Shown: piece by piece, positions 1,226 through 59,572 of the stretch
Layout of the letters: every line of letters begins with the position of its first letter
Position numbering within the stretch: position 1 is the stretch's first letter
NCBI GenBank assembly: GCA_964385105.1
Contig: CAYLMU010000002.1
Span: 250,583 to 314,582, forward strand
Reading direction: 5' to 3'
Origin: an uncultured Candidatus Saccharibacteria bacterium
GTDB lineage: Bacteria; Patescibacteriota; WWE3; UBA101185; UBA10185
Length of the DNA: 64,000 bases
Translations under genes and position numbers: made by a program
The notes under the pieces: generated by a model
Told to the model about the DNA's origin: nothing
Seen by the model: only the letters and a program-made list of their open reading frames with translations
Databases searched by the model: none

Positions 1226-2803
1226 ATGAAAAATAAAAAAGCAGTATTATTTATTAGAGTATCAACGAAAGAACAAGCCGATGAGGGTAGTAGTCTTGAT
1301 GCTCAAAAAAGATTATTAAAAGATTATTCCGATAGAAAGAACTTAATCAAAAGTAAGATGGTTGAGGTATCAGAAAGTGCTAGAGGTAAGCAGGAAAGAA
1401 AAGCATTTAATGAATTGATAGAATACTTATACAGCCATCCAGATGTAAAAGATTTGATTTGCGAGAAGGTAGATAGGATTACTCGAAACTTCAAGGATGC
1501 AATCAAACTAAACGACTGGTTGGATGCTGATGAGGAGCGAAGGATTCACTTTGTTAAACAAAGTTTGATAATCCATAAAAACTCAACATCAAATGACAAG
1601 TTCCAATGGGACATTTACTTAGTTATGGCAAGACAATATAGTAACAACCTATCAGAGGAATCCAAGAAGGGTTTATATGAGCGTGCTACTCAGGGTTATT
1701 ATCCAGGAAATCAAAAGCGTGGTTACAAAACAATTGGAGAAGTCGGTAGGAAATCTTGGGTCATTGATGAGGATACAAAGGAACACAGGTCCATTAAAAA
1801 AGCATTTGAACTTTATGATACGGGTAACTTTACCTTAAGAACACTTTCATTAGAAATGGGAGAAAGAGGTTGGAAAGATTCCAAAGGTAAAAACATTTCA
1901 ACAAGTACTCTGCATAAACTTTTAAGTGACTGCTTTTATTGTGGTGAATTTACATTTGGTGGAAACCACTATCCTGATGGCAAACACGAGGCACTTATCT
2001 CACCAGAATTGTTTTATAGGGTTCAAGATAGACTAAACAGAAAAAACAAAGCGGGTAAGTTTAAGAAACATAGCTTTATTTTTGGCGGAGGGTTACTACA
2101 ATGTGGCGAATGTGGGCGAACAATTACTGCCGAGGAACAGAAAAAACACCACTACTATCATTGCACAAGGCACGAAACCGATTGTACACAAACAGAGTAT
2201 GTAAGAGAGGAACTAATAGAAAAACTTCTTACAACATTACTAGAGGGACTAAATGTTAGGAATAGTAAATTAAGTGAATGGATTAAGAAAGCTATCAAAG
2301 AAAATCACAAAGAGGAAGTCGAATACCACACAAGCACCATAACGCACCTAGATGCCGAATATAAGCGTGTACAAGACCGTCTAGATACTGCCTACGATGA
2401 TAAAGTAGATGGATTGATTAGCAAGGAACAGTATGAATCTGCAAGAGACAGGTATGAGAAACAATTGAAAGAAATTGTGGAGGCTAAAGCCAAACATACC
2501 GATTCCAATATAGATTATCTAAGGTTTGGAATGAACATTTTCGAATTGTCTCAAAAAGCAGCACAATTATACGAAAAGAAAGCTACACAAGATGATAAAA
2601 GACAACTACTTAGTTTTATATTTTCGAACCTAGAATTGAAAGATGGAAACATTGTACCTACCTATCATAATGGGTTTCAATTGGTTGCCAATCGGGCTAA
2701 AAGTGGTAATTGGCTGGGGGACAGGGATTCGAACCCCAATTTTCGGGACCAAAACCCGACGTGCTACCCTTACACCATCCCCCATCATCTTAAACCATGG
2801 TAA
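1226..2803 (+). CDS. large serine recombinase (resolvase/invertase N-domain + recombinase domain + zinc-ribbon)
   Basis: N-terminal AVLFIRVSTKEQ...SLDAQ with catalytic Ser context; DRITR motif; central recombinase domain; Cys cluster CGECGRT...HHYYHC; 3' 95 nt run antisense through tRNA-Gln. Confidence 0.85.
   Translation: MKNKKAVLFIRVSTKEQADEGSSLDAQKRLLKDYSDRKNLIKSKMVEVSESARGKQERKAFNELIEYLYSHPDVKDLICEKVDRITRNFKDAIKLNDWLDADEERRIHFVKQSLIIHKNSTSNDKFQWDIYLVMARQYSNNLSEESKKGLYERATQGYYPGNQKRGYKTIGEVGRKSWVIDEDTKEHRSIKKAFELYDTGNFTLRTLSLEMGERGWKDSKGKNISTSTLHKLLSDCFYCGEFTFGGNHYPDGKHEALISPELFYRVQDRLNRKNKAGKFKKHSFIFGGGLLQCGECGRTITAEEQKKHHYYHCTRHETDCTQTEYVREELIEKLLTTLLEGLNVRNSKLSEWIKKAIKENHKEEVEYHTSTITHLDAEYKRVQDRLDTAYDDKVDGLISKEQYESARDRYEKQLKEIVEAKAKHTDSNIDYLRFGMNIFELSQKAAQLYEKKATQDDKRQLLSFIFSNLELKDGNIVPTYHNGFQLVANRAKSGNWLGDRDSNPNFRDQNPTCYPYTIPHHLKPW
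2710..2783 (-). tRNA. tRNA-Gln (anticodon TTG)
   Basis: Manual fold of reverse complement: U1-A72 acceptor TGGGGGA/TCCCCCA, discriminator G, CCA encoded, anticodon loop TTTTGGT, T-loop TTCGAAT; resembles E. coli tRNA-Gln architecture. Confidence 0.85.
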
Positions 2804-8762: not shown

Positions 8763-10031
8763 TTATTCCCTAATTACAACCTCAGCCACGCCATTCTCTT
8801 CTAACACATCAATCTCCTTATATTCAGGCAACACTGCGCTTCTAAACCACAATTTTTCGTTATTTATAGTGTATAAAACATGAGGAAGCTCATTATCAAG
8901 CTCTGTAAAAGTTTGTGATGCAATATTATATGTGTAAAACCTGGAATCCCCTAAATATAGATAAAGTGATGAATCGGTTTTTTCAACAATCCTCGGGGAC
9001 GTCTCTATTTCAAACGTTTGTAACTCAGCCAGTCTTTTTCCAAATAAGTCATAAACAACATAAGAATAAATATTTTCCAAACGACCGGGATTTTCTTCAT
9101 CAAACCTGATTCTATTGTTATATCCAAGCAAAGATTCGTTATTTATAAAAGCAGTTGCAAATTCACCTCCGGCAGCATATCCATTTTCAAAAGTTGAGAC
9201 TTTTCTTCCCGATTCAATGTCTAAAATAAATTGTGTGCTACCCTCAAGACATCCTTTAGTAATTAATAAAAGTTTTGAGTTTGGGCTTATATCGTCAACG
9301 TAATGGCTTGCACATAAATCATTATATCTAACCAAAAAAAAGTCTTTTATTTCTTGGCTTTCAAGTGTATAAACTCTTATACCATTTGAAGTAATTATTA
9401 ACTGCTTGTCATCAGGAGTAAACGATAAATCACGGAGTTGCATTTCAGTATTAACATTACTTATTCGATAAGCAAGTTTTGTTTCATCTGTTACAAAATC
9501 TTTAATGTAAACAGCATTTCCCCGCTTATTAACAAATAATTCATCTATGCCGGGCATAAAATCACTTTCAAGAATTGAATATGCAATTTTTGTTTTATCA
9601 TTACTTATTGCAAAATACAAAATATCCTCATCTGCCGACAATATAGTTGATATTTTACCGTCATCAACATTTAACATATATATATCGCCATTTTTAATGT
9701 AATAAAAAACTTTGTCTTTATTTAGCATTAACAAAGCTCTGGCATAAGCAGCACAAAATTTGTTCTCACAGGATTTATCAAATTTTTCTATAGGTAAGTC
9801 AACCTTTGCATTTTTTTCTACTGAATATGATGTTATTGGTGCAGCAGCAGTAATTTCAGAAGTATTAATTTCTTTGTTGCTGACATATCTTGAGTAAGCC
9901 ATTGAGATTAAAACTCCGGCTATTACTGCAATTAATAATGTTACACGGGCAATTCCTCGGTTAGTCACTGTTTTATTGTAACGGTAGTGCGTGGTTTTTA
10001 AAAGGTTTTTAAATGAATTCTGCCACAACAA
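8763..10031 (-). CDS. membrane-anchored beta-propeller (TolB/WD40-like) protein
   Basis: N-terminal TM anchor; repeated beta-strand-rich ~40-aa units with YxxxxDG-like turns; last gene of sortase operon. Confidence 0.4.
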   Translation of the reverse strand: MLWQNSFKNLLKTTHYRYNKTVTNRGIARVTLLIAVIAGVLISMAYSRYVSNKEINTSEITAAAPITSYSVEKNAKVDLPIEKFDKSCENKFCAAYARALLMLNKDKVFYYIKNGDIYMLNVDDGKISTILSADEDILYFAISNDKTKIAYSILESDFMPGIDELFVNKRGNAVYIKDFVTDETKLAYRISNVNTEMQLRDLSFTPDDKQLIITSNGIRVYTLESQEIKDFFLVRYNDLCASHYVDDISPNSKLLLITKGCLEGSTQFILDIESGRKVSTFENGYAAGGEFATAFINNESLLGYNNRIRFDEENPGRLENIYSYVVYDLFGKRLAELQTFEIETSPRIVEKTDSSLYLYLGDSRFYTYNIASQTFTELDNELPHVLYTINNEKLWFRSAVLPEYKEIDVLEENGVAEVVIRE

Positions 10032-10545
10032 CCAAACGCTTAGAGTCCATAAAACCGGTGCAAGTGTATAAAGTCAAAATCTTTCCCTCTCTGTCATTTA
10101 AAATGTGCGTCTGGTCGGGGGTTACAACAAATTTATCTTTTATAATAAATTTTCGTATATCTCCGTTAGAAAGCTTAATTGATATTTCATCCCCATTTTT
10201 AATATCATTCAAATTTTTAAGTAAATTTGGCCAATTGTGTCCATAAAAAACACTATTTCCTTCATCACCTGGCAAAACGGTGTCTTTTAAATAGGCTATA
10301 CCATCAGATGTAACCTCCCACTCATGGTTTGTAATCGATGTCTGAATTACCGGTAGACTGACATTTATAGCAGGAATTTCAATGGATACAGGCATAATTT
10401 CACTTGAAACCGTTGTGCCGGTATTAAAATTATAGTAAGAAAATTTTATTTGTCTGTTACGCTGATTAATTAAGTAAAGTGTATATGAAAAACTCAACAG
10501 TGAAGTCACACTCAAAATCACTGTTAAGATTCTTATCTTGTTCAT
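10009..10545 (-). CDS. sortase family transpeptidase (class E-like)
   Basis: N-terminal TM anchor, conserved His region (FYGHNWPNL), TLxTC catalytic motif (LTLYTCTG), downstream conserved Arg. Confidence 0.7.
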   Translation of the reverse strand: MNKIRILTVILSVTSLLSFSYTLYLINQRNRQIKFSYYNFNTGTTVSSEIMPVSIEIPAINVSLPVIQTSITNHEWEVTSDGIAYLKDTVLPGDEGNSVFYGHNWPNLLKNLNDIKNGDEISIKLSNGDIRKFIIKDKFVVTPDQTHILNDREGKILTLYTCTGFMDSKRLVVVAEFI

Positions 10546-11168
10546 TTTCGGCTTTTTAGTTTTAGAATTGCAGCTGAAAGCCCTGATACCATAGCAATAG
10601 CCCCTGATGCATATATTAAAGCTGCATCACCTGTTGAAGCTAAGCCTAAAGTGCCACCTCTAACAGTAGATATAGCTCTTGCTAAAATTTCACCATCATC
10701 GTCGTCATCATCTTTTTTAGTGCTTGTACCTCCGGTACCACCTGTTTCACAACTTAAAGTTAAGTTAAACGCCATAAACGGGTCTCGGCTTAAACCCCAT
10801 ACCGAACCGTCGGGAATGTAAATCCATCCCTGGTCTGTTAAATATTCAATTGCATCAATACTTAAACTTGAAACTTTCCACCAGTTAGTCTGAATTCCTC
10901 TTCCATTAGGTGCACAAAAACATTGAACAACTGTTGTGTCAGATAAGGTGTAAACTGTATCTCTTCCTGTGTAAACCCGTGTGTCACCGGGAATTCCATG
11001 AGTACCTTCGCTATAGCTTACTTTTATTGTTCCTTGTGGATTATTACATGTAGGAAATGTGGGTATTACAAAATCATCATTAACTGATTGTGCAAATGAA
11101 GTATTTTGTGACAATAAAGCACAAATTACTATAAAAAGTATTAGATTAATATATTTCCTGCTTTTCAT
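10542..11168 (-). CDS. sortase-anchored surface protein with LAxTG-type sorting signal (LASTG)
   Basis: Signal peptide (MKSRKYINLILFIVICALLSQNTSFAQS); poly-Asp linker; C-terminal LASTG + hydrophobic segment + KSRK tail. Confidence 0.65.
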   Translation of the reverse strand: MKSRKYINLILFIVICALLSQNTSFAQSVNDDFVIPTFPTCNNPQGTIKVSYSEGTHGIPGDTRVYTGRDTVYTLSDTTVVQCFCAPNGRGIQTNWWKVSSLSIDAIEYLTDQGWIYIPDGSVWGLSRDPFMAFNLTLSCETGGTGGTSTKKDDDDDDGEILARAISTVRGGTLGLASTGDAALIYASGAIAMVSGLSAAILKLKSRK

Positions 11169-11233
11169 AAATACTGTTCGGGCAGGAATTTAATGGCTGG
11201 ATTGTATCATACTATAATACAAATTACAACAAT

Positions 11234-12499
11234 TTAATTAATAATCTCAAAAAATAATTTTTGTACTTTAAACAGCACATTTTCATTCTTTTTATTCAAA
11301 ACTACTTTGTACGATTTTTCATCATCACTAAGTAAATACACTTTTCCATAGTATCCGGGTGCTTCAATGTATGCTGATTGGTTATCGTTAAAAATCGGTA
11401 TACGCACTGTATTTGTGCCATTTACATAATTTTTATCAAGTGTTCTAACTGTAACGTCTTTTATTGGATGGTTTATTTTATTGTATGCGGCTAATTCTAC
11501 AAATTCAGGACTGTAGTAATTTTTAATTACTTCAACTGCGGGTTTTGGCGTACCGTCATCATTCCAGATTTTTGTTGAACCACCGTAACTTACCCAATAA
11601 TTCATTCCAACAAATTTTGGGTTTTCTACAAGAAGAGAAATCGCTTCATTGAGCCACTCAGCCTGCTCCTCGTCAGTCATACGCCCATGAATATCAGGTA
11701 CAGGCGCTCCAAATTCACCTAACACAACTTCTCCACCACTTCTTTCACCAATTTTTATAATATCATCGGCCAGTTTTTGAGGGCTTTCAACATAATGGTC
11801 AACTACTACAATTCCCCCCAAAGCTGTAGTAGTTTGCTTATTCATAATTAACTGAGCAACATCCCCATTCATTGAGAAGTAGTTTGATTTAACATCAACA
11901 CCTATTGAGTCAAATGCTTGAGAAGTTACCGCATACTCATCTATTAAGAATTCACGGTAATCTTCAACATCTCCTGTAAATCTTGGGTCACCGGGGCCGC
12001 CGTTTTCACACTCTGGGCATGATGAAAAAATATCGCCATCTCTAAATAAATGTTTATTTTGTAAAATAAATTCTTTTGTTTTGCTTAAATGTTCTTCACG
12101 GGTAATTGGGCTATAATCAAACCATTCTTCCCACCCTGCAAAATTTCCTCTAAACCAAACATTTAGTCCATGCTTTCTTGCACTGTTAACCCATTTTTCC
12201 AAAAAAGGAATAAATTCCTCATCATAAGGCGTTCCTACTGCAACGTGTGTTGCACCGGTTTGAGCAATATTTTTTACATGTTCATCAATTATTAAATCAA
12301 ATTCACTGTTTGATTTTTTTTCACGCGCTAAATCTCGCGAATATTTCATTGTGTCGATTGACTGAATCTCCCAGATTCTGTTAGTAACTTTTTCTGAATT
12401 TACAATATTTTTATGCAAAACCATTAAATTAAGGCTATATAACAAAACTAATAAAAGTAATATAAAAATGGTGTAGCGTAGATTTCTGAATACTTTCAC
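11234..12499 (-). CDS. membrane-anchored putative glycoside hydrolase (TIM-barrel, GH5/GH113-like)
   Basis: N-terminal TM; alternating beta/alpha pattern with conserved acidic residues (NVWFRGNFAGWEEW, VVLGEFGAP); first/last gene of glycosylation operon. Confidence 0.35.
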   Translation of the reverse strand: MKVFRNLRYTIFILLLLVLLYSLNLMVLHKNIVNSEKVTNRIWEIQSIDTMKYSRDLAREKKSNSEFDLIIDEHVKNIAQTGATHVAVGTPYDEEFIPFLEKWVNSARKHGLNVWFRGNFAGWEEWFDYSPITREEHLSKTKEFILQNKHLFRDGDIFSSCPECENGGPGDPRFTGDVEDYREFLIDEYAVTSQAFDSIGVDVKSNYFSMNGDVAQLIMNKQTTTALGGIVVVDHYVESPQKLADDIIKIGERSGGEVVLGEFGAPVPDIHGRMTDEEQAEWLNEAISLLVENPKFVGMNYWVSYGGSTKIWNDDGTPKPAVEVIKNYYSPEFVELAAYNKINHPIKDVTVRTLDKNYVNGTNTVRIPIFNDNQSAYIEAPGYYGKVYLLSDDEKSYKVVLNKKNENVLFKVQKLFFEIIN

Positions 12500-12508
12500 T
12501 TTTCCCTC

Positions 12509-14113
12509 CTACTTTTGCTTGCCTAAACTTGGGGTAGTGTTTAGCTGACCTATATATTCAGGCTTTAATTCGTAAATATCTGCAAATGGAAACTTCCCGA
12601 CCAGGTTGTATTTATCAATAGCACCGGATTCTTTAACACCTTTAAATGTTAAATCGTTATCATCGTGAGTTCGCATAATTATCCATCTTGCCCACCTGTC
12701 AGGTAGGGCAATTGCGCTTTCCCAATAAAGGCCTGTACCTTCATGAATAAACTTTTTCATAGGCATTCCCGACGAAAAGATTATGGCGTCATGAGATGCA
12801 GCTGAAATCAAAACAAAACCTTCTTTGTCGGCTGCATTTTCTCTAAGCCATCCGCTAACTTCAGTCACATTTTTTTGACTTGAACCTACTCTTGCATCAT
12901 CAATTGTCACAGCATCATAATTTCCAAAACCGAAAAATATAATTATAAAGATTAACCCTGCCACAACAGCTTTGAGATTTTTCATTTCATACAGCAAAAA
13001 TGTAACAAAAATGGCTATTGAGGGAGCTAACATTATTCCATAACGCACGTTAAACCAGGAAGTTCCAGATATGCCTTGAATAAAAAGTACTGAATGTCCA
13101 AGATAAAGGGCAATCACGTTAAATAAAAGTGGAGCAACCAGTGTCATAAGTGTTACTTTAATGCTTAAATTTATTCTTTTGCTAAACCAAACAGCAATTA
13201 CACCAAAAAATCCTAAAATAGCAGGAATTGTATAAGAATTGTAAAACAAAGCATATAAATACATTTTTGTGGAAAGTATTAAGTTTCCTTTTGTTGGTAA
13301 GTCCCCGGCTGCTTCAAGTTGGGTTTGCTGTGAATGAGCTGAAAACGGCCCAAATGCAAAATATAACGGGTCTTTAAAAATTAATAGATTCCAAACAAGC
13401 CATAAAAATATCCCTAAACCACCCATAGACATATATAACACTGCAGTTCCTTCAATTGCTTTAAAACCTTTTTTTCTGTATGTTTCAAAAACCACAATTA
13501 AAGTTGCAAAAAATAGCAGAAACCATCCATCATATCTTATTAAAGTCGCTAACATTATAAAAAACGAAGAACCTATTAAGTGAATCAGCCTATCGTCTTT
13601 TGTCCATAACAACAAATAAAACGCACCTGCGGTCATTGTTGCTAAAAGTAAAAGTTCAGTCATGGCGGTTGACTGCAAATATAAAACATTTAAATTTGCG
13701 GCAAACAAAAATACACCAAAAATCCTGTAATAAAACGGTATAGAAAGTTCTTTTAAAAACAAATATACTAAGACACCGGTTATAACAAAAGATGCCATCG
13801 ACTGAATTGCACCTGCTAATCCGGAATGCCACATAAAATCAGTCCAAATTGTTGGAATCATTAAAACGTGAGGCAAAGGAAGCCACACCGAACCGATTTG
13901 AGCTATTCCGGGCTTTAGACCTTCTACTACACGTCTTCCGATGTTTAAGTGAGACCTTGCATCGTTATATGCTAATCCAAGCCCATTGTCATAAAATCCA
14001 AGCCAGGCAACTATTGACGTACTCAGTAAGACTAAAACTATTAAAAACACTGCATTCTTTTCAAGATACTCGGTAATTATATTTATTTTCTTATAAGATA
14101 TAGAAATGTTCAT
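12509..14113 (-). CDS. GT-C fold glycosyltransferase (family 39/ArnT/PMT-like), polytopic membrane protein
   Basis: ~12 TM segments, N-terminal loop with conserved acidic/aromatic residues (AYNDARSHLNIGRR) typical of ArnT/PMT family. Confidence 0.5.
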   Translation of the reverse strand: MNISISYKKINIITEYLEKNAVFLIVLVLLSTSIVAWLGFYDNGLGLAYNDARSHLNIGRRVVEGLKPGIAQIGSVWLPLPHVLMIPTIWTDFMWHSGLAGAIQSMASFVITGVLVYLFLKELSIPFYYRIFGVFLFAANLNVLYLQSTAMTELLLLATMTAGAFYLLLWTKDDRLIHLIGSSFFIMLATLIRYDGWFLLFFATLIVVFETYRKKGFKAIEGTAVLYMSMGGLGIFLWLVWNLLIFKDPLYFAFGPFSAHSQQTQLEAAGDLPTKGNLILSTKMYLYALFYNSYTIPAILGFFGVIAVWFSKRINLSIKVTLMTLVAPLLFNVIALYLGHSVLFIQGISGTSWFNVRYGIMLAPSIAIFVTFLLYEMKNLKAVVAGLIFIIIFFGFGNYDAVTIDDARVGSSQKNVTEVSGWLRENAADKEGFVLISAASHDAIIFSSGMPMKKFIHEGTGLYWESAIALPDRWARWIIMRTHDDNDLTFKGVKESGAIDKYNLVGKFPFADIYELKPEYIGQLNTTPSLGKQK

Positions 14114-15702
14114 TTTATCTTCCTTTTTACATGTTCTTTACTTAAATAAGCAGAAGTCATGAGTAAAAATGAATAACCTAAAATAGCACCTGAAACACCG
14201 TAGTAATAAGTTCGGGCTTTCAAGTAGTCTGAGGCAAACTCCTTAAAAAACACTGATTTGGAATTTCCGGCCTCAATGAATTCCCAGCTTCTATCATAAG
14301 AATACCTTTCTACTCTATTTGTTAGAGCCTCAAGAGGTAAAGCCTGAACCTTGGGTGGAATAGCGTTAGTTGTCAAAGCCCCCAAAGTATTTACAAAAAC
14401 AGAATATGTAAGTAAAACAGCAAAAGCTAATACAAACACGCTGTTTTTATAATATTTCTCAATTGCAAAACCAATAAAAATGGCCATTATTGCATACATC
14501 GGTATCAAATATCTTGCACCAAATGCCCATCCGCCCCACGGGTCGCCCCACATAGAGTATAAAACAAGATTCATAATCGCTGTTCCAAACAAAAGTGAGA
14601 GATATTTATCATCTCGTTTATAAAGCACATAAATTCCAACTAAGCCCAACAACATAACCGGTGTAAATTTAATTATTCCTCTGTCTGGACTTAAAAGTAA
14701 AATGTACATACCGTTTACAATGTCACGCGGCTCAAATATTTCTAATACATATTTTTCCTGGCTTTCAGGGTTCAAATAAATATCAAGTAAGGTTTCATCT
14801 ATTTCCTCGGTTACTGCGGGTTTTCCGTCGTCACCTATAGCAGCAATACTTGGCACGGTTCCAGACAATTGAAATGGGTTTCCATAAGAATAGTAATTAA
14901 ATAACCCAAATAAAACTACCGGAGCTATAATACCTAAAAATGTTAGTAACATCGCGGGTTTGAATGATATTTCCATTTCATTTTGTAGTTTATTTGTTTT
15001 AAATAAAGTAATAAAGGAATATATTCCAACCGGTAACATTAAGAACAAATTTGGGTTATCTATTGCTACAGAAGCTGCACACAAAAACCAAACAATAAAG
15101 TAAGTGATCCATTTGTCTTTGAATCTAATTAATAAATAAATCGAGAATAATATTAAAAATGTTGAAATATGATGCTGATACAACGTTACTGCATAGGCAA
15201 ACGCCGGTGTTGCAAATAAAAATGTAAAACCTGCTAGAGTTGCAATTTTTTCGTTCAAATTAAAATACTGCAATATTTTTTTGACAAGCAAAAAGTTAAA
15301 AAACGCAAACAATGAAATTACAGCAAATGTTCCGACTTGGGAGTAACCTAATGCTTTTCCTACTATAAATCCCGGTATAACAATTACAGAGACACCCGGT
15401 GCAAATAAAGAAACATACTTATCATTCAAATAACCAAGATCCGGTGCCGTAAAACGTGCTAGTGGAATTTGAAAAAAGAAAGATTTATCTTCTATAAGTG
15501 AGTAGGTTAGCGCAAATCTGCCACGTTCCGGCGAAACCTCAAAAGGGCCGTCTCGCAACCACTCATTGCTCAACAAATCAGTTGTTGTGGGATTTCCTGT
15601 CTGACCTCTTATTGAGAGTGCCAGTACAAGGATTACAAACAATAACGATAATATTGATGCTAAGTTTGATATATTTAATAAACTTAATATTTTCTTTTTC
15701 AT
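14110..15702 (-). CDS. GT-C fold glycosyltransferase (ArnT/PMT-like), polytopic membrane protein
   Basis: Multiple TM segments; N-terminal extracytoplasmic loop; paralogous organisation to 12509-14113; start overlaps upstream stop. Confidence 0.5.
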   Translation of the reverse strand: MKKKILSLLNISNLASILSLLFVILVLALSIRGQTGNPTTTDLLSNEWLRDGPFEVSPERGRFALTYSLIEDKSFFFQIPLARFTAPDLGYLNDKYVSLFAPGVSVIVIPGFIVGKALGYSQVGTFAVISLFAFFNFLLVKKILQYFNLNEKIATLAGFTFLFATPAFAYAVTLYQHHISTFLILFSIYLLIRFKDKWITYFIVWFLCAASVAIDNPNLFLMLPVGIYSFITLFKTNKLQNEMEISFKPAMLLTFLGIIAPVVLFGLFNYYSYGNPFQLSGTVPSIAAIGDDGKPAVTEEIDETLLDIYLNPESQEKYVLEIFEPRDIVNGMYILLLSPDRGIIKFTPVMLLGLVGIYVLYKRDDKYLSLLFGTAIMNLVLYSMWGDPWGGWAFGARYLIPMYAIMAIFIGFAIEKYYKNSVFVLAFAVLLTYSVFVNTLGALTTNAIPPKVQALPLEALTNRVERYSYDRSWEFIEAGNSKSVFFKEFASDYLKARTYYYGVSGAILGYSFLLMTSAYLSKEHVKRKIK

Positions 15703-16247
15703 AATCCAAGTGAAAAATAAAAAAACTTCAATTTTTTCTTTTCACACTCTCTAAATGAGTCACCATTAGATTCCATTTTTAACTTCTCATAGGCTTGTTT
15801 GTTTTTTTTAAGAAGTTTGTATGCTCTAATATTCCTTGCGAACATTGGATTATTTGGGCTTACGAGCACAAATTGAATATCACACTTGTTTTTACTTAAT
15901 GACCACTCAATAAAATTCCTTCTACGTTTTTTCGGTAAGCCTAAAATTTTAATCAATCCGGGCAAATACTTATCAAAATCTTTTGGATTACTCACTGCAA
16001 ATAAATCAATATCTCTTTGACCTGCAATTTTAAGGGCCGCAGAGCCAAAGAAATGAATTTTTAATTTCGGGTATAGCTTATGAATCCTGCTAATGAGCTT
16101 ATTTCCTAATTCGGTTACTTTCGGGTCATAAGGCTTTATTTTTACGTATTTATCACTAGGATAAGTATACAAATACAAATATTGCTTTGGCCCTTTTAAG
16201 AACATAAGCAATTCGATATAAATTGTATTTAAAACTTTATCAGTCAT
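15699..16247 (-). CDS. GrpB-family nucleotidyltransferase-fold protein
   Basis: YDPKV...HFFGSAALKIAGQRDIDLFAV matches GrpB core (YDPxW ... GSTxVPGLxAKPxIDI); start chosen at MTDKV immediately after upstream stop instead of overlapping longer ORF. Confidence 0.45.
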   Translation of the reverse strand: MTDKVLNTIYIELLMFLKGPKQYLYLYTYPSDKYVKIKPYDPKVTELGNKLISRIHKLYPKLKIHFFGSAALKIAGQRDIDLFAVSNPKDFDKYLPGLIKILGLPKKRRRNFIEWSLSKNKCDIQFVLVSPNNPMFARNIRAYKLLKKNKQAYEKLKMESNGDSFRECEKKKLKFFYFSLGL

Positions 16248-16248
16248 G

Positions 16249-17001
16249 CTATTTGTAAAAATACACTTCTTGTTTTGAGGGCGGGATTTGTTTAAATATT
16301 GCATCAAACTGTGACTCATACATTTTCATTAAATGAAGCTTTTTGTTCCAATCTGGCAAAACCTCTTCAGATTTATAATCCGAAACTTTAGCTTGTGAGT
16401 TAACCGAATATGGAAAATCTTCCCAGAAAATGCTTTCGGTTTTCAATGTCTTAATAGCCTCATTTACAACTATATGGTCTATATGATTGCCTATTCCGAT
16501 AGGCGCAAAGATTGTATCAAATTGATAAGTATTCGTCAAAAACCCTATTCTGTCGGCTATAATTTCTATAAGCAGTTTGTCTTTTTTATGTATATTGCCT
16601 TTGATTATATGTAGTCTATAGGTCGGATAAAGTGAATTGATTTCAGGCAATATTTTACCAAGTTCGTAAAGAAAACCTGATGACTGTTTTTGTCTCCACA
16701 AAGCTTCTATAAAACCCAAATTAATAATATTACATCCCATATTTGTTAACACCTTTCGGTCTTCTTCAGTTCGAGCTTTGTATAACTCACCAGCAATTTC
16801 ATAACCACATTGCTTTAAATAAGCTTTTGCTGACAAAGTGTTATATTTATGAGGAGTTTGAGTAAAAACATTTATTATTGTAACTTTACATCCGCCTTCA
16901 ACTAATTTATTAATTAACCCTCCAGCTGAAAAAACTGCATCATCAAAATGAGGGGATACAAAGGCACAGTGACTTTTATTTTTTATTAATTCATTAAGCA
17001 T
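16249..17001 (-). CDS. PIG-L/LmbE family N-acetylglucosaminyl deacetylase
   Basis: VSPHFDDAVFSAGG and GNHIDH zinc-binding motifs. Confidence 0.75.
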   Translation of the reverse strand: MLNELIKNKSHCAFVSPHFDDAVFSAGGLINKLVEGGCKVTIINVFTQTPHKYNTLSAKAYLKQCGYEIAGELYKARTEEDRKVLTNMGCNIINLGFIEALWRQKQSSGFLYELGKILPEINSLYPTYRLHIIKGNIHKKDKLLIEIIADRIGFLTNTYQFDTIFAPIGIGNHIDHIVVNEAIKTLKTESIFWEDFPYSVNSQAKVSDYKSEEVLPDWNKKLHLMKMYESQFDAIFKQIPPSKQEVYFYK

Positions 17002-18106
17002 TTGCTAAAATTCCTTTTATAAATTTTGTGTATGACTTGGCAATTGCATCCCACGTAAACATTTGCGCGTATCTATTGCCTTCAATTTCAAGAAATTCCG
17101 CATATTTTCTGTTTTTTATAATATTAGATACTGCTTCTGAGAACCCATTTATATCAAAAGGAGATACTTTTACAGCAGTATTTTGTGGTATCCAAGATAA
17201 ACCTTCTATGTCAAAACAAACTATTGGCAACTTATGAGCCATGGCTTCGAGTGCCACCATAGAAAAGGTCTCAAAGCGTGAAGTAATTGCCATACATTGT
17301 GATTCACACAATAACTGTTCTTTTTGCTTTCCTGAAACACGTCCTATTAATTCAACATTATTTTGTAATTTATTTTTTTTGATGAGGTACTTCAGTTTTT
17401 TAATTTCATCACTATGCCCGTCACCGGCAATAATTAGTTTATATGAACTATTTCCATCTTCTACAAACTTTTTGAATGCTTTTATTAACAAGTCCAGTCC
17501 CTTTTGATTAACCTCGATTCGACCCAAATAAAGAATCTGATTTTCTTTTTTTGATTTATTTGAAACTATTTTTTCAATTCCGTTGCTTATTATTTGTATA
17601 TCACATGCAGGATTTATTGATTTGAGCTTTTTTTGCATGTATTCACTAGTGGTGACAATTATTTTATAGTGTTTTAAGCCCAATTTTTCAACTAAATGAA
17701 ATGGAAGCTTGTATTTTCTTTTCATATCTTCTGCTGCAAGCATGTGTACCACACCAACTACCGGTTTTTTAGTGACTGATGGCAAAAAAGCAGTTGTGAA
17801 AGGCGGAGAGAAGCTTTCCATCCATATGTCATATTTTTTTAATTTGCAATGAATTGGCAAAGTTAACTGAAACAGCAATAAACCAAGTCGGGGGGTTATT
17901 AACCTGTGTCCAACCCTTTGATATAAAACTCCATCAATAATCTCAACAGACACACCTGAATGGTTCCAGGTTAAAATTTTTAAATCATATTTTTCATTTA
18001 GTCGTTTAGCCAATTCATGTACAGCAATTGCTCCGCCTCCGCCATAATACGGGTTTTTTATATCATCATATGTTGAAATTAATAGTTTTTTCTTTTTTTT
18101 GTTCAT
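16994..18106 (-). CDS. glycosyltransferase family 4 (GT-B)
   Basis: N-terminal GGGGA donor-binding loop, C-terminal EGFGMV-like motif FSMVALEAMAHKLPIVCFDIEGL. Confidence 0.75.
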   Translation of the reverse strand: MNKKKKKLLISTYDDIKNPYYGGGGAIAVHELAKRLNEKYDLKILTWNHSGVSVEIIDGVLYQRVGHRLITPRLGLLLFQLTLPIHCKLKKYDIWMESFSPPFTTAFLPSVTKKPVVGVVHMLAAEDMKRKYKLPFHLVEKLGLKHYKIIVTTSEYMQKKLKSINPACDIQIISNGIEKIVSNKSKKENQILYLGRIEVNQKGLDLLIKAFKKFVEDGNSSYKLIIAGDGHSDEIKKLKYLIKKNKLQNNVELIGRVSGKQKEQLLCESQCMAITSRFETFSMVALEAMAHKLPIVCFDIEGLSWIPQNTAVKVSPFDINGFSEAVSNIIKNRKYAEFLEIEGNRYAQMFTWDAIAKSYTKFIKGILANA

Positions 18107-19014
18107 ATAATCCTAAATAGAAAGGTGATATATTGTTTTGCTTTACCTTGAATTCTGTTTGAACCAAGTGACATATCAAATAAAACACTGTAATACAAGA
18201 AAAATTTGTATTCATCACGATTTTTGGTGTCACTTAATGTTTCAGACAAAAATAAAGCCATTTCAAGTTCATAATCTTTCTCCCACATGCTATAAAACGT
18301 ATTTGCAAAGTCATGAGCTTTAATTGAAATGCAAAATAGCTGAAGGTCTATAATTGATAATTTATTGCCGCTTTTTATGATATTTGATGTATTTAAGTCT
18401 TTATGTACAAATCCATAATCTGTTGTTTTTATAACCTTAGGTGCATGCAGCATCATTTTTAAAAATGATTTCATAATTGGGGCAAACTCAAAAGGATTTT
18501 TCACTACAGCAAGTAAGGCCATAAATGGTGCAAGTAATACAAACTGCTCAACATAACGTTTTTTAAAAACTTCTAATATATAAGCATCATCTTCTTTTGC
18601 AAATTCATATAGTTTATTCAAATAGGTAAAACTCTGCTGAATTGATTTTATCTTCACTTTTATAGGAAGCTGTCTTAAAGTATCACCATTCACTCTTTCT
18701 AATAAGATAAGAAAAATATCTTTGTCTTCGTATGTTAGAAAATGTTTGGGAAATGAAACGTTTGAGTTTTTTATATTTTTGCTTAATTTTAATAAGGCTT
18801 TGTATGCCAGGTCTTCGTTTCTTAGCTCATTAAGCTTATTTTCGTTTAGCTTTTCACACATTTTTGCTATATATTCGTTACCTTCACAGTCAACATATAT
18901 TGCAAAATCATATTTACATTTAATAAGTGCCAGTTGTTCCTGAAGTTGAAAGCTTTCTTCAAGTGTCAGCGGGAAATTATTTGATATTTGTGTTGAATAG
19001 CTTACAAGACTCAT
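18103..19014 (-). CDS. protein kinase-like/aminoglycoside phosphotransferase-fold protein (putative sugar or small-molecule kinase)
   Basis: HKDLNTSNII (HxDxxxxN catalytic loop) and IDLQ (metal-binding D) motifs. Confidence 0.45.
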   Translation of the reverse strand: MSLVSYSTQISNNFPLTLEESFQLQEQLALIKCKYDFAIYVDCEGNEYIAKMCEKLNENKLNELRNEDLAYKALLKLSKNIKNSNVSFPKHFLTYEDKDIFLILLERVNGDTLRQLPIKVKIKSIQQSFTYLNKLYEFAKEDDAYILEVFKKRYVEQFVLLAPFMALLAVVKNPFEFAPIMKSFLKMMLHAPKVIKTTDYGFVHKDLNTSNIIKSGNKLSIIDLQLFCISIKAHDFANTFYSMWEKDYELEMALFLSETLSDTKNRDEYKFFLYYSVLFDMSLGSNRIQGKAKQYITFLFRII

Positions 19015-19016
19015 CT

Positions 19017-22000
19017 TTACTCAGTGCTTTTAACTAAATTGAAACGAAATCTTGGTTGAACAACGGCTTTTTTTGCTTCTTTTATTTCAATATAGGTCTG
19101 AATACATTCGGCAAAGTTATTTGAAATCCTATTCCAGTCAAAGTTTTCAGCCCAACTTAATGAATTTTTTTCATACTTAGCTCTTAATTCATCATCAATA
19201 AGTATTTTTTTGATAGCCTTAGAAAATGCTTTACTATTTCCAACTTCTACAGTAATACCGGTATATTTGTTTTTTACCGAATCAACCAACCCTGGAACTC
19301 GTGAAGCAACAACCGGTGTACCACATGCGTTTGCTTCCAGAACCGAAATGCCCCATCCTTCCATTGTTGATGGTTGTACAAAGACCCAAGCGCTCGATAA
19401 AAGTTTAATCTTTTCATCATCACTCACCCTACCTAAAAATTTCACGTTATTTTCAAGGTTTAACTCCTTTACCAATACTTCAAGGCGTTTTCTGCTCTCA
19501 CCAAAACCTGCAATCTTAACCTCTATATACGGCATAGTTTTTGCAAGATTTCGTGTGGCATATATTAGTGTTTCAAGTGATTTATATGGTTTTAAACGCC
19601 CTAAGTATAAAATTGACGGATTGACTGTTTTTGGACCGGGTTTTAAGTCGTTTAAGTCAACTCCAGGACTCATAATAATAATGTTGGAGTTTCTACCAAA
19701 TCCAATTCGTTCCATATCACTTTTGGATGAATTGGAAACTGTAACCATTTGAACATTTCTGTATACAAATGGCATAATTTTTGATTCTAATTGCTTGGCT
19801 ATAAACGCAACAGGCCATGAAGTAATGGGTAATTTTAGCTGTTTAAAAATTATTTCACTGTGAACATGGTGAACAAGACCAATAACCGGAGTTCGGGTAT
19901 AAAGTGGTGCAAAAAACGGAACTCCGTTTTCACTGTCAATTATAATGTCGTATTTGCTTCTAAACTTAAAAATGTAGTAGAAAAATGCCCAAATATAAAC
20001 TGTATAAAAACCGCCCCGTCTAACTACGTTAACTCCTTCTACTTGCTCGTTTCTTGTGTTTTTTCCGTCATTGCCGCAAAAAAGTGTTACATCATGACCA
20101 TCTTTAACCCATCTCTTTGCTAACTCATGAACATATACTTCAGCACCGCCTGCCCATACATGTTTTGTATCACGCCAATTCAAAATTAAAATGTTTAGCT
20201 TTCCGTCAGCTTTATAATCTACGTGTGCATATGCCGGTTGTGAATATTTTGGTAGCAAATCCAAAATGTCATGAGAAACTTCAATGAATTTTTCTTTAAA
20301 AGTGTGAAGTATTGCAACAGCAACCAAAAAGAATGCACCGCTTAAGATCATGACATTAACAACATGTGAAATATTTGCATGAAAAACATATAAACCAACA
20401 CTTTGCACTATAACAGTGAGAATCCCCGGAATTGCAAAAATATATTCTCTTCTTGCGTGATAATAAGTTACTACAGCATAAGCAACAGAAAAGAACATCA
20501 TAGCAAACGAAAATCTTATTAAATAAGGCAATATGGGCAATGCTTTTTCACCAAATAAAATCGGTATAGTTATGCTTCCTGCCAAACCTACTATAATAAA
20601 GGCAACAAAAGTTGAACTTACAATTGCAAGTAAAATCTTTTTAAATGCTACAGAAGTTTTTGAACCTGCACCTGCATCTTTGCTGACTATAGGAATAATA
20701 AATTGAGCAAACATGCTTCCAATCATATATACCATACGTCCAACAAGAATTAACAAGGCATACTGACCTGCCTCAATAGCACTTAAATAATGCTTTACAA
20801 AAATCAAGTCAAGACTCAAAAATGTCACAGCTGATAATTTGGTTAAAACGGCTGTTGTAAAAAATTTCTTTGATAATTTAAGATTTTCAGGTTTTTCAGG
20901 TTCTTGCTCTGTACGCGGTAACGCGGACCTAGCAATTCTTGCAGCTATTACCCATCCAACAACCATGGATACCAAAATTGAAATCGGTAAAGCTGTATAA
21001 ACCCACTCGCCCATATTAAATTGAACAAAAACAACAGAAAAAGCTAATTTAACGAATGCGCTAATTACAACCAAAAGTGCTAAAGCATAAAATTTGTGGC
21101 TTCCTTCCAAAAAACCAGTGTTTACTGCCTGAATGAGCAAAAGAGTCCACATTGGTGCAAATACAATAAACGGTACTAAAGTGTGTGAATTAAAAAATGT
21201 TGAAAGAAGAGGTATTGATGCTATCCATCCCGCAACTAGAATCAATGAGATTTTGGTTAATTTGTTTCTATATGTGTACCAAATCTCACTTCTTAACGAA
21301 TTATACTTTCCAAATAAAAATGCCGTGTTATTAGAAATTGTTTGAGCAACTCCCGCGGCTGGTATTTGAGCTATAAACATAAAACTACTCAATAATGCAA
21401 TAAGACCAAATCCTTCTTCGCTCAGTGTTCTCCCAAGGTAAGCGCTTGTTAAAAAGTTTAAAACGTTGGCAACCATTGTTGCTGCAATAAGCGCTAAACC
21501 GGCTGAAACGGTTGTATCATATAAGTTTTTGATTGTTGCTGTAGATATAGCCGGTTTTACAGTCGGCAAAGAGACACGCGGAAACGCCAGTGTTGGCCTT
21601 GATATAAATGCAAGTTTTCGGCTTTTTTTTGTAATGTTAAGATGCAGCCCATGATGTGTTTTTTCCCAGTGGTGAGGTTTAAATATTAATTGCCAAAAAG
21701 CCATTACTGCTGCTATACTCATTAAAAACCAGTAAAAAGGCACAAAAAATACAAATTTAATAAGGTTATACTTTTCGCGTTTAGCCAGCCCAATCATGTA
21801 GTTGTAGATATACAAAAAGTTTCCAAATACGAGTGAAAACGCTGCCATATAAAACACAAGTGATGGAAACAAAGCTTCAATCGTCTCACCTACATATTCG
21901 TTGAATACAAAGTATGAAATTGTTGCAAGCCATAAAATCGGGTTAATTAAAATAAAGCTAATTCTTAATCCAATTATTAATTGAAAGATTAAAGCATGAA

Positions 22001-23774
22001 TACCTTGTTTTCTTAAAAATGCAAGCGGGTCTCGCATATGAACAAGATAAGTTTGCATATAACCCTTTAACCATCTAGATCTTTGTCTTATCCAGTTTTT
22101 GACATTACTATTTGCTTCTTCTAAAGTTGTTGAATCAATAATTGCGGTCTTGTAGCCTTCTTTAAATAACCTGGCGCCCAAATCACAATCTTCAGTAACA
22201 TTAAACGGATCCCATCCATGAAGGTCTTTTAAGTATTGAGCTTTAAAGTGATTGCTTGTACCTCCTAACGGAATTGTTGTTTCAATACTCTGCAAACCCG
22301 GCAAAATGATATCAAACCACAAAGTATATTCGGCAGTAAACATTCTTGTTAATAAGTTGTGGTGGGGATTATAATAATTTAGCTTTGCCTGAACACAAAT
22401 AATATCCTCAGGAAGATTTTTAAATGCTAAATAAGCTTTTTTAAGCTGTAAAGAATCGGGCATGTCTTCGGCATCATAAATAACCACATATTCACCTGAG
22501 GCCATTTTTAATCCATAATTGCATGCTTTTGGTTTAGTTTTTGGCATAGAATGCGGAACAACGACGGTTTTGAAATATTCAGGCAAATTAAGCTTTTCGG
22601 CGGCTTTAACTGTCACATCATCGTCTTCTTCGAGTAATAACAGAACTTCAAGTTTATCTTTTGGCCAGTCTAGGGCACTAATTGCCTCAACAAAATTTTT
22701 TAAAACCGCATCTTCTTTATATAAGGGACATAAAATTGTATATATGGGCAAATTTTCATCTGATAAGCTATTTAATTCATCGGTATTTGGCTGAATTTCA
22801 GGCGGGTGGCTTAAACTCTTTAAAATTAGATAAATATTGAACAATACGTCCAAAAAGTAAATTGCACTCAATATTGCTAAAATCCAGATTAAAGTTTTAA
22901 AAGGATAAAATATTAAACTAGCTATAAACAAGACGATAACTGCAGAAATTAAGAATTTTTGATCTCTTTTTAGTGTGTATAAAGCGGATTTATAATGTGG
23001 AAGATTTGTATGAGTTTTATAATGCTTTCCTTTGTACACTGTGCTATGAGAATCTGTATCGTTGTGAGCTATGTGAAAAACCCGTCTTACTGTAAGTTTA
23101 GTTTTAATTGCAGCTATAGCTAATGCCCAGGCTGTTTTTGCAAAATTTATATTAGACGACCCGTTAACTCTTAAAACATAGTCAATGTCAACCCCGCCTA
23201 TTTTGTAGCCCAATTCTTTTGCTGTATGAAGTAATGTAACATCGAGTGTCCATGGTGTTACATGCTCAACATTCATATGATTTGCAATTTCTCGCTTGAA
23301 AACTTTTAACCCAGATTGAGTATCACAGTTAAGTCCCAATAAAAATTTTCCAAAAATTAATTTGTTTAATCTTGAACCTGCTTTTCTTACAAAAGTACTT
23401 GAATAAGTTCGTCTGTTTGCAACAACAACCCCTAAATTATCGATATATGCTTTTTTCAACATTTCAGGCAGTACCTCAGGAGGATATTGAAGATCCCCGT
23501 CTATAAATGCGACATATTCTGTTATGGCTAATTGCAAACCTTCAATAATAGAATAGCCCTTACCTTGTATACCTTTTTTTGTATGAATTTTTATAGGAAA
23601 TTCTTTTGAAAGATTAGTTAATATTTTTACAGTGGCATCTTTTGAATTATCATCAACAAAAATCAGCGTAAAATCAATATTTGCAACATCCATTGCACCT
23701 GATAGGCGATTCACTAATTCATTCAAGTTTTTCTCTTCATTATAAACCGGTATAATAATATCTAGAGCTTTCAT
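19017..23774 (-). CDS. 1585-aa multidomain glycosylation protein: GT2 (DPM1-like) + processive GT2 synthase (QxxRW) + Wzx/MOP-like flippase domain + GT4
   Basis: N-term IIIPVYNEE...FVDDNSKD (GT2); second GT2 with YDAEDMPD, VTEDCD, QRSRW motifs; ~12 TM region with Wzx-like pattern (LLILVGRMVYMIGSMF); C-term GT4 with EGWGISVLEANACGTPVVAS; uninterrupted 4.7-kb ORF in AT-rich DNA. Confidence 0.8.
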   Translation of the reverse strand: MKALDIIIPVYNEEKNLNELVNRLSGAMDVANIDFTLIFVDDNSKDATVKILTNLSKEFPIKIHTKKGIQGKGYSIIEGLQLAITEYVAFIDGDLQYPPEVLPEMLKKAYIDNLGVVVANRRTYSSTFVRKAGSRLNKLIFGKFLLGLNCDTQSGLKVFKREIANHMNVEHVTPWTLDVTLLHTAKELGYKIGGVDIDYVLRVNGSSNINFAKTAWALAIAAIKTKLTVRRVFHIAHNDTDSHSTVYKGKHYKTHTNLPHYKSALYTLKRDQKFLISAVIVLFIASLIFYPFKTLIWILAILSAIYFLDVLFNIYLILKSLSHPPEIQPNTDELNSLSDENLPIYTILCPLYKEDAVLKNFVEAISALDWPKDKLEVLLLLEEDDDVTVKAAEKLNLPEYFKTVVVPHSMPKTKPKACNYGLKMASGEYVVIYDAEDMPDSLQLKKAYLAFKNLPEDIICVQAKLNYYNPHHNLLTRMFTAEYTLWFDIILPGLQSIETTIPLGGTSNHFKAQYLKDLHGWDPFNVTEDCDLGARLFKEGYKTAIIDSTTLEEANSNVKNWIRQRSRWLKGYMQTYLVHMRDPLAFLRKQGIHALIFQLIIGLRISFILINPILWLATISYFVFNEYVGETIEALFPSLVFYMAAFSLVFGNFLYIYNYMIGLAKREKYNLIKFVFFVPFYWFLMSIAAVMAFWQLIFKPHHWEKTHHGLHLNITKKSRKLAFISRPTLAFPRVSLPTVKPAISTATIKNLYDTTVSAGLALIAATMVANVLNFLTSAYLGRTLSEEGFGLIALLSSFMFIAQIPAAGVAQTISNNTAFLFGKYNSLRSEIWYTYRNKLTKISLILVAGWIASIPLLSTFFNSHTLVPFIVFAPMWTLLLIQAVNTGFLEGSHKFYALALLVVISAFVKLAFSVVFVQFNMGEWVYTALPISILVSMVVGWVIAARIARSALPRTEQEPEKPENLKLSKKFFTTAVLTKLSAVTFLSLDLIFVKHYLSAIEAGQYALLILVGRMVYMIGSMFAQFIIPIVSKDAGAGSKTSVAFKKILLAIVSSTFVAFIIVGLAGSITIPILFGEKALPILPYLIRFSFAMMFFSVAYAVVTYYHARREYIFAIPGILTVIVQSVGLYVFHANISHVVNVMILSGAFFLVAVAILHTFKEKFIEVSHDILDLLPKYSQPAYAHVDYKADGKLNILILNWRDTKHVWAGGAEVYVHELAKRWVKDGHDVTLFCGNDGKNTRNEQVEGVNVVRRGGFYTVYIWAFFYYIFKFRSKYDIIIDSENGVPFFAPLYTRTPVIGLVHHVHSEIIFKQLKLPITSWPVAFIAKQLESKIMPFVYRNVQMVTVSNSSKSDMERIGFGRNSNIIIMSPGVDLNDLKPGPKTVNPSILYLGRLKPYKSLETLIYATRNLAKTMPYIEVKIAGFGESRKRLEVLVKELNLENNVKFLGRVSDDEKIKLLSSAWVFVQPSTMEGWGISVLEANACGTPVVASRVPGLVDSVKNKYTGITVEVGNSKAFSKAIKKILIDDELRAKYEKNSLSWAENFDWNRISNNFAECIQTYIEIKEAKKAVVQPRFRFNLVKSTE

Positions 23775-59497: not shown

Positions 59498-59572
59498 GGC
59501 CCCATCGTCTAGTGGTTAGGACATCAGGTTTTCATCCTGGTAACCGGGGTTCGATTCCCCGTGGGGTCACCA
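59498..59572 (+). tRNA. tRNA-Glu (anticodon TTC)
   Basis: Acceptor GGCCCCA/TGGGGTC, D-arm GTCTAGTGGTTAGGAC, anticodon loop TTTTCAT, T-loop TTCGATT, CCA encoded. Confidence 0.9.

Follow-up and report, generated by a model that had tools for sequence, protein, structure and literature searches.

Dedicated pairs of one sortase and one target protein are known, such as SrtB–IsdC of Staphylococcus aureus and the class GN 'marine' sortase with its single cognate target. SrtA of Actinomyces oris has many substrates; GspA is one of them, its gene does not adjoin srtA, and the protein is glycosylated by an enzyme of the LCP family. The mechanism of sortases is established and has been summarised as export of the substrate, its retention in the membrane, attack by the catalytic cysteine, and resolution by an amine (PMC8225981). 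The LAxTG motif has been assigned to class E (PMC5148588; PMC8225981), a class that carries a 21-residue insertion between strands beta6 and beta7 relative to class A (Kattke et al., PMC5148588). A tyrosine in the beta3/beta4 loop of class E (Tyr229 of SrtE1), which corresponds to F92 of CpSrtD, has been proposed to recognise the alanine at P3 (PMC5148588). Sortases are near ubiquitous in Microgenomates (PMC6744442), and 'sortase motifs' are mentioned on surface proteins of bacteria of the candidate phyla radiation (CPR) (PMC5220378). In this study we focus on a sortase gene and the gene directly ahead of it in a 64-kb stretch of contig CAYLMU010000002.1 (positions 250,583 to 314,582), hereafter the window, to which all coordinates refer. 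The two genes probably make up a cassette, in a Patescibacteria bacterium of Microgenomates type, that dedicates one sortase to one substrate and is linked to the assembly of envelope glycans.

The pair is made up of the following features:

10542 to 11168, minus strand: sortase substrate, 208 amino acids (aa), described from its open reading frame (ORF), its homologs and an AlphaFold model
Parts of the substrate: signal peptide, aa 1-26; four-cysteine core, aa ~31-140; disordered linker, aa 141-175; LASTG, aa 176-180 (codons at nt 10629-10643); transmembrane helix, aa 181-202; tail KLKSRK
10009 to 10545, minus strand: sortase, 178 aa, Pfam PF04203 (E 8.5e-25), with an anchor at aa ~5-27 and a catalytic domain at aa 55-176
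10237 to 10239: codon of the catalytic His103 of the sortase
10060 to 10062: codon of the catalytic Cys162
10036 to 10038: codon of the catalytic Arg170

The 208-aa protein opens with a Sec-type signal peptide (MKSRKYINLILFIVICALLSQNTSFA, followed by QS), with likely cleavage after SFA. Its C-terminus reads TLG-LASTG-DAALIYASGAIAMVSGLSAAIL-KLKSRK, with 22 hydrophobic residues between LASTG and the basic tail, and this secreted protein stands as the sequence-only reading of the locus had described it. A regular-expression scan over the window's 120 ORFs of 60 aa or more detected a tripartite sorting signal in this ORF alone and no other credible one, and the family hidden Markov models (HMMs) gave one substrate match and one sortase match over the 64 kb. 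The protein has 290 detectable homologs, about 190-220 aa long, whose named sources are Patescibacteria, Microgenomates, Woese-, Gottesman- and Roizmanbacteria. In 117 of the best 120 homologs, L-x-x-T-G lies at an equal distance from the C-terminus, with a hydrophobic stretch and a basic tail after it. The variants are LASTG (62), LAATG (33), LATTG (8), LAGTG (4), LAYTG (4) and a few others, and can be summarised as LA[SATGY]TG. Moreover, L176, A177, T179 and G180 are invariant in an alignment of 75 substrate sequences, within a longer consensus [VI]LG-LAxTG-[ND]. Given this conservation in 117 of 120 homologs and the four invariant positions, the LASTG motif is not a chance occurrence. The Pfam Gram_pos_anchor and NCBIfam LPXTG models did not match the window protein, and Gram_pos_anchor matched weakly in four of the 75 relatives (best E 0.049); in our interpretation these models are built around a proline at P3.

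The core of the substrate contains the motifs GTHGIPG and GIQTNWW. Its invariant residues are C41, H57, D70, Q82, C83, C85, Q93-T94-N95-W96, W115, W124 and a cysteine at alignment position 140, so that four cysteines are invariant. In the AlphaFold model the core has a predicted local distance difference test score (pLDDT) above 90 and forms about eight strands and two short helices; the linker scores below 50 and the C-terminal helix 84-95. No Pfam domain was found on the core in any of the 290 homologs, sequence and profile searches of Pfam, NCBIfam and PDB gave no relatives of this domain of ~110 residues, and Foldseek gave no match in PDB (best E 0.3) or BFVD (best E 0.18). MdbA-like and VKOR disulfide machinery has been reported for CPR genomes (PMC6744442), and the four invariant cysteines would fit such machinery. 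The linker (10644-10748) carries a poly-Asp run (DDDDDD) that had been singled out as a possible site of glycosylation. This run is not conserved: the linkers of the family are hypervariable and of low complexity, and those of other homologs consist of poly-Ser, GDGRSD repeats, NNTT repeats or His6, or contain an inserted fibronectin-III domain.

The TGA stop codon of the substrate gene overlaps the ATG of the sortase gene as ATGA, a typical arrangement for translational coupling. The identification of this second gene as a sortase, initially read from a TLxTC active site, is confirmed by PF04203 (87.4 bits, cut-off 26.6) and by the TIGR01076 sortase_fam model (56.6 bits, cut-off 39.35). The protein has a hydrophobic N-terminal segment at residues ~5-27 (RILTVILSVTSLLSFSYTLYLI, read from the translation). 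H103, C162 and R170 are invariant in 62 sortase sequences, and the active-site motif, LTLYTCTG, agrees with the clade consensus (I/L)TLYTCTGF.

The sequence-only reading had assigned the system to class E. The signal is indeed LAxTG, but the enzyme itself does not belong there. Its scores against the NCBIfam class models, in bits with the cut-off in brackets, are 54.5 for class C (NF033745, 160), 49.4 for SrtD (140), 48.9 for class D (165), 40.3 for class F (166), 36.5 for class GN (TIGR03784, 158) and 35.5 for class E (NF033747, 160), class C thus being the highest and class E the lowest; there was no class B match. None of the 62 sortase relatives approached any class cut-off, the best E for any class being ~1e-15, and class E was again the weakest of all classes (best E 1.3e-10). 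The nearest solved structures are of class C (2xwg, E 5.4e-10) and class D (4d70, CpSrtD, E 9.3e-10), and none of the 26 PDB matches at E <= 0.01 is of class E, B or F. His and Cys are 59 residues apart in all 61 members in which the spacing was counted, closer than the 64 residues of S. aureus SrtA (H120–C184), and with a spacing of only 59 the beta6/beta7 insertion of class E is absent. In the HMMER alignment to CpSrtD, 'GHF' is paired with 'AYL', which puts Leu86 (57 L, 5 W) at the F92 position; this loop alignment could be off by one, and a conserved Tyr85 adjoins Leu86, one residue earlier. The adjacency of the LASTG protein suggests that the enzyme acts on the LAxTG motif, as class E does. 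By these profile and structure comparisons, the enzyme is a sortase that falls outside class E and every other curated class. It would probably belong to a Patescibacteria clade beyond classes A-F and GN, which appears to have reached LAxTG specificity separately from the actinobacterial class E.

Conservation of the pair was followed with a GIQTNWW pattern scan of one genome per species (GTDB r232), which matched 105 genomes; 80 loci, each a 12-kb stretch, were examined. In 73 of these 80 species-level loci the substrate gene is followed at once by a co-directional sortase gene of the same clade, and three of the seven other loci stop at a contig end. The genomes that bear the pair are all apparently Patescibacteria/Microgenomates. 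Furthermore, three loci (L043, L051 and L071) hold a second sortase paralog, each preceded by its own unrelated protein ending in ...QVLGAST..LAATG or MAGTG. Since these second paralogs also follow a signal-bearing protein of their own, one substrate per sortase looks like the rule in this lineage.

Several further observations were made on the same loci. The unrelated proteins that carry the QVLGAST...LAATG/MAGTG tail are encoded at 8447-9391 in L043, 6571-7248 in L051 and 7120-8292 in L071. Within the substrate family, 63 of the 117 motif-bearing homologs have, 8-18 residues ahead of VLG-LAxTG, an additional [VI]L[GA] unit that often reads VLGAST; this tail, shared with those unrelated proteins, may be a lineage-specific extension of the sorting signal. 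At one locus (L030, 5881-7122) substrate and sortase are fused in frame into a single ORF of 413 aa (...LGLAATG-TM-YKKKTQRVN-MRSISKFF...sortase, where TM is the transmembrane helix), with a compatible membrane topology; this single case could be a true Rosetta-stone fusion, or it reflects the loss of a stop codon or an error of assembly. Many of the records that bear the cassette (L006, L009, L013, L015, L022 and others) go under the titles 'uncultured Gammaproteobacteria', 'Pseudomonadales' or 'Weeksellaceae'. These titles are probably taxonomic mislabels, as the genes around the cassette are those of Microgenomates.

Ahead of the substrate gene, in the direction of transcription, lie the following features:

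11201 to 11229, minus strand: promoter-like site TTGTAA-17-TACAAT with TG, from a consensus scan, in the 65-nt gap ahead of the substrate gene
11234 to 12499, minus strand: putative glycoside hydrolase, 421 aa, with an N-terminal transmembrane anchor, an extracytoplasmic domain and a C-terminal beta-sandwich
12509 to 14113, minus strand: GT-C-like polytopic membrane paralog, 534 aa, from weak profile matches and hhalign
14110 to 15702, minus strand: GT-C (PMT_2-like) glycosyltransferase candidate, polytopic, 530 aa, from weak profile matches

Taking for each gene the loci that are informative, the putative hydrolase has a homolog immediately ahead of the substrate gene in 56 of 70, a homolog of the 12509-14113 gene lies upstream in 48 of 64, and one of the 14110-15702 gene in 38 of 58, always on the same strand. 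By this gene order, the substrate–sortase pair is the 3' end of a conserved string, in which the two GT-C paralogs come first and the membrane-anchored putative glycoside hydrolase stands between them and the substrate gene. The link to glycosylation that had been noted is therefore real in terms of gene neighbourhood. The accompanying statement, that the pair lies upstream of a glycosylation operon, holds in plus-strand coordinates only.

The nature of the three upstream proteins was approached through their families. The hydrolase candidate of the window has no Pfam or PDB match; PF11790 Glyco_hydro_cc matched weakly in 9 of 45 relatives (best E 6e-4), and a C-terminal CarboxypepD_reg-like domain is found in 21 of the 45. 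The family keeps E163/E165-N166, D234-H235 and E262 invariant, with a D-H-Y motif and Glu165 and Glu262 lying 97 residues apart, a pattern from which a clan GH-A-like hydrolase is possible. The two polytopic window proteins have no Pfam match and no PDB sequence match. By hhalign their two families are homologous (probability 94%, E 9.6e-8), and the 12509-14113 family is highly conserved, with a mean column identity of 64%. Both match the NCBIfam LA_3751/3752 putative glycosyltransferase model under its cut-off of 200 bits, at 62.3 bits (E 3.6e-17) for the 14110-15702 protein and 22.7 bits (E 3.9e-5) for the 12509-14113 protein. Of 38 relatives of the former, 5 give a match to PF13231 PMT_2 (best E 5.4e-6) and single ones to further mannosyltransferase families; among members of the latter family, 1 of 39 matches PMT (E 0.0037). 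The site at 11201-11229 could be an internal promoter for the substrate–sortase pair; in the promoter and terminator scan, the counts of sites were no higher than in shuffled sequence, and only its position is suggestive.

Farther upstream, at 19017-23774 (minus strand), a fused protein of 1585 aa combines GT2, GT2, Polysacc_synt (flippase-like) and GT4 domains. A homolog of it (~1560 aa) lies directly after the sortase in 10 other loci. The interval between the GT-C genes and this giant glycosyltransferase (15699-19014, minus strand) encodes a GrpB/nucleotidyltransferase-like protein, a PIG-L family deacetylase, a GT4 glycosyltransferase and an APH-like kinase, and is poorly conserved in related loci.

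As we picture the cassette at work, the 208-aa protein would be exported by Sec, and its four invariant cysteines would probably form two disulfides in the compact domain of ~110 residues. The C-terminal helix and basic tail would hold it in the membrane until the co-translated, membrane-anchored sortase cleaved the presumed Thr–Gly bond of LASTG by attack of Cys162. The acyl-enzyme intermediate would then be resolved by an amine, presumably that of a peptidoglycan precursor, and the domain would be displayed at the cell surface on its flexible, hypervariable linker. Because its invariant set is rich in Trp and in Gln/Asn/His/Asp and its glycosyltransferase neighbourhood is conserved, a glycan-related role is suggested: the displayed domain most probably acts in the extracytoplasmic glycan pathway of its neighbours, where it could bind or organise glycans or itself be a wall protein that becomes glycosylated.

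Some points weigh against this picture. Cleavage, acceptor, disulfides and glycan link are inferred, and the GT-C and glycoside hydrolase assignments rest on weak profile matches. The upstream genes are missing beside the pair in about 14 of the 70 informative loci, and the link to glycans is thus not an obligatory one. The Ser/Thr content of the linker is 0.27 in loci with GT-C genes and 0.30 in loci without them; O-glycosylation of the linker by the adjacent GT-C enzymes was accordingly dropped as the main idea, and the linker is not claimed here as their target because its Ser/Thr content does not track them. As for the housekeeping-type role that had been proposed for the sortase, the strict adjacency of one substrate and one sortase, together with the second pairs in L043, L051 and L071, looks dedicated instead. 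This status is judged from the 12-kb loci and the 64-kb window.

A bolder form of the same interpretation holds that the GIQTNWW four-cysteine domain is a new fold and the wall-anchored part of an envelope glycan machine specific to Microgenomates, composed of two GT-C paralogs, a GH-A-like hydrolase and a private sortase, the latter being a new class with independently evolved LAxTG recognition. We hold it to be possible, though rather unlikely.

Next comes the reading that was originally put forward, in which a class E sortase of housekeeping type forms a three-gene operon with the substrate and a beta-propeller protein and, like the SrtE of Actinobacteria, is the anchoring enzyme of many LAxTG proteins. 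It brings in two more features:

8763 to 9968, minus strand: membrane-anchored beta-propeller, 401 aa, with GTG 9968 as start in public gene call P0123 (the longest ORF runs to 10031, 422 aa)
9975 to 10002, minus strand: promoter-like TTTAAA-16-TACAAT, a consensus match only, ending 7 nt ahead of GTG 9968

The third gene does encode a membrane-anchored propeller, as had been recognised. Its AlphaFold model (pLDDT 85, predicted template modelling score 0.79) has an N-terminal helix at residues 3-30 followed by 27 short strands. Foldseek gave 1178 PDB matches at E <= 0.001, with TolB, WD40 and YVTN propellers on top (E about 1e-9, probability 1.00), and PD40 of Pfam matched weakly in 2 of 32 relatives. 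The three genes are co-directional, with a gap of 40 nt between sortase and propeller gene, the window holds a single sortase, and LAxTG is the class E motif, all of which speaks for the operon and for the class. The distribution of the propeller tells otherwise: it has one close homolog in 5.8 billion proteins (2 matches in a word-based search) and 32 matches in a full HMMER search, with none in the 80 related loci. The sole close homolog (L081) is flanked by homologs of the window genes 8082, 7057, 6305, 5418 and 4561 at 55-78% identity, with a YibE_F gene upstream and no sortase nearby. As the propeller is absent from the 80 loci and travels with the other flank in L081, the break in synteny lies between the sortase and the propeller gene. 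The propeller was rejected as a third member of the system on this synteny, and from its gene context it is taken to be an unrelated neighbour of the cassette; the site at 9975-10002 would fit a separate, nearly leaderless propeller transcript. Added to this are the class E score far below its cut-off in the window enzyme, the weakest E among the relatives, the lack of class E structures among the PDB matches, the missing insertion, and the Leu at the position of CpSrtD F92 and SrtE1 Tyr229, subject to the possible shift of one residue. We consider this reading improbable.

Another possibility, which we judge very unlikely, is that the acceptor is not peptidoglycan: the sortase would attach the protein to a product of the adjacent GT-C enzymes, a glycan or a lipid-linked intermediate, or would merely release it from its membrane anchor. 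The conserved string with two GT-C paralogs and a glycoside hydrolase-like protein would suit this, the structure of the CPR envelope is unresolved (PMC5220378), and glycosylation and sortase anchoring are coupled in A. oris GspA (PMC9282373). However, in all characterised sortases the nucleophile is an amine, either of a peptidoglycan precursor or of a lysine in a pilin (PMC8225981), and about a fifth of the loci have the pair without GT-C genes. The least credible proposal is that the sortase builds a pilus or fibre by linking copies of the 208-aa protein head-to-tail via a lysine, as class C does with pilins: class C gives the best model score and the best PDB match, Lys49 and Lys98 each occur in 83% of substrate homologs, and the substrate gene adjoins its sortase as in pilus loci, but the class C cut-off is not reached, the DP[WFY] lid of class C is found in 0 of 62 sortase members, no lysine is invariant in the substrate family, the core is a single small domain that is not immunoglobulin-like and matched no pilin structure in PDB, and there is no second (tip or base) pilin gene.

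The dedicated cassette thus remains our preferred interpretation. The cell envelope of CPR bacteria is poorly understood, and these bacteria are thought to live attached to other cells. To this the locus adds a conserved cognate substrate for Microgenomates sortases, with a domain that has no known relatives; an enzyme that falls outside the accepted sortase classes despite its 'class E' LAxTG motif; and a tie of the pair to a conserved set of candidate membrane glycosyltransferases. A search of the full-text literature gave no account of this substrate family or of the conserved gene string, nor any of LAxTG motifs being used in CPR or of what Microgenomates sortases anchor. The system offers testable targets for the envelope biology of an uncultivated group, and it may also supply an orthogonal LAxTG sortase for ligating proteins. 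As its mechanism varies a well-known one, the surprise to a specialist is moderate; were the new fold and the new sortase class true, they would give a first handle on how ultrasmall bacteria build and decorate their envelope.

Other features of the window were recorded as well. Two large serine recombinase genes (Resolvase and Recombinase domains) lie near its ends, at 1226-2803 (plus strand) and 59532-61028 (minus strand), and the ORF of the first overlaps a tRNA-Gln at 2711-2784. On the minus strand are found a gene of the bacterial archaeo-eukaryotic release-factor-like (baeRF) family (27357-28538, E 1.6e-35), a fusion of 797 aa with spermine/spermidine synthase-like and M28 peptidase domains (24683-27076), and a third GT-C protein (39484-41205), which exceeds the Pfam cut-offs for PMT_2 (46 bits) and PMT (39.7 bits). 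Most genes of the window are on the minus strand and GC skew is negative in nearly all 2-kb bins; for a Microgenomates genome, a strong disparity in composition between the strands has been reported (PMC7143001).

Set against the known systems, the locus resembles several and coincides with none. The two upstream polytopic proteins are like the PMT/ArnT-type GT-C glycosyltransferases (Pfam PMT, PMT_2) at the level of weak profiles; unlike these, they stay under every Pfam cut-off and have no PDB sequence match. With class E, represented by SrtE1/SrtE2 of Streptomyces coelicolor and their chaplins and by the Corynebacterium SrtE, the pair shares LAxTG, with Ala for Pro at P3 (PMC5148588), as well as a membrane-anchored enzyme with the His/Cys/Arg set of a transpeptidase, an activity predicted here, and a tripartite C-terminal signal. 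It differs from class E in that the sortase fails the class model (35.5 versus 160 bits), is without the 21-residue beta6/beta7 insertion, has Leu at the aligned position of the class E tyrosine (in a HMMER loop alignment that may be one residue off), is short (178 aa), comes from Patescibacteria and not Actinobacteria, and lies beside one fixed substrate. As in the A. oris SrtA–GspA system, a wall-anchored substrate would be tied to extracytoplasmic glycosylation (for GspA, PMC9282373). Here the putative tie consists of genes in a conserved glycosyltransferase string, and the candidate enzymes differ from those of A. oris in being GT-C/PMT_2-like. Compared with SrtB–IsdC and the class GN pairs, the clade (GN 36.5 versus 158 bits; no class B match), the signal, the substrate fold and the taxon are different, and what this locus has in common with them is the arrangement itself, one sortase beside one cognate target that carries a non-canonical signal.

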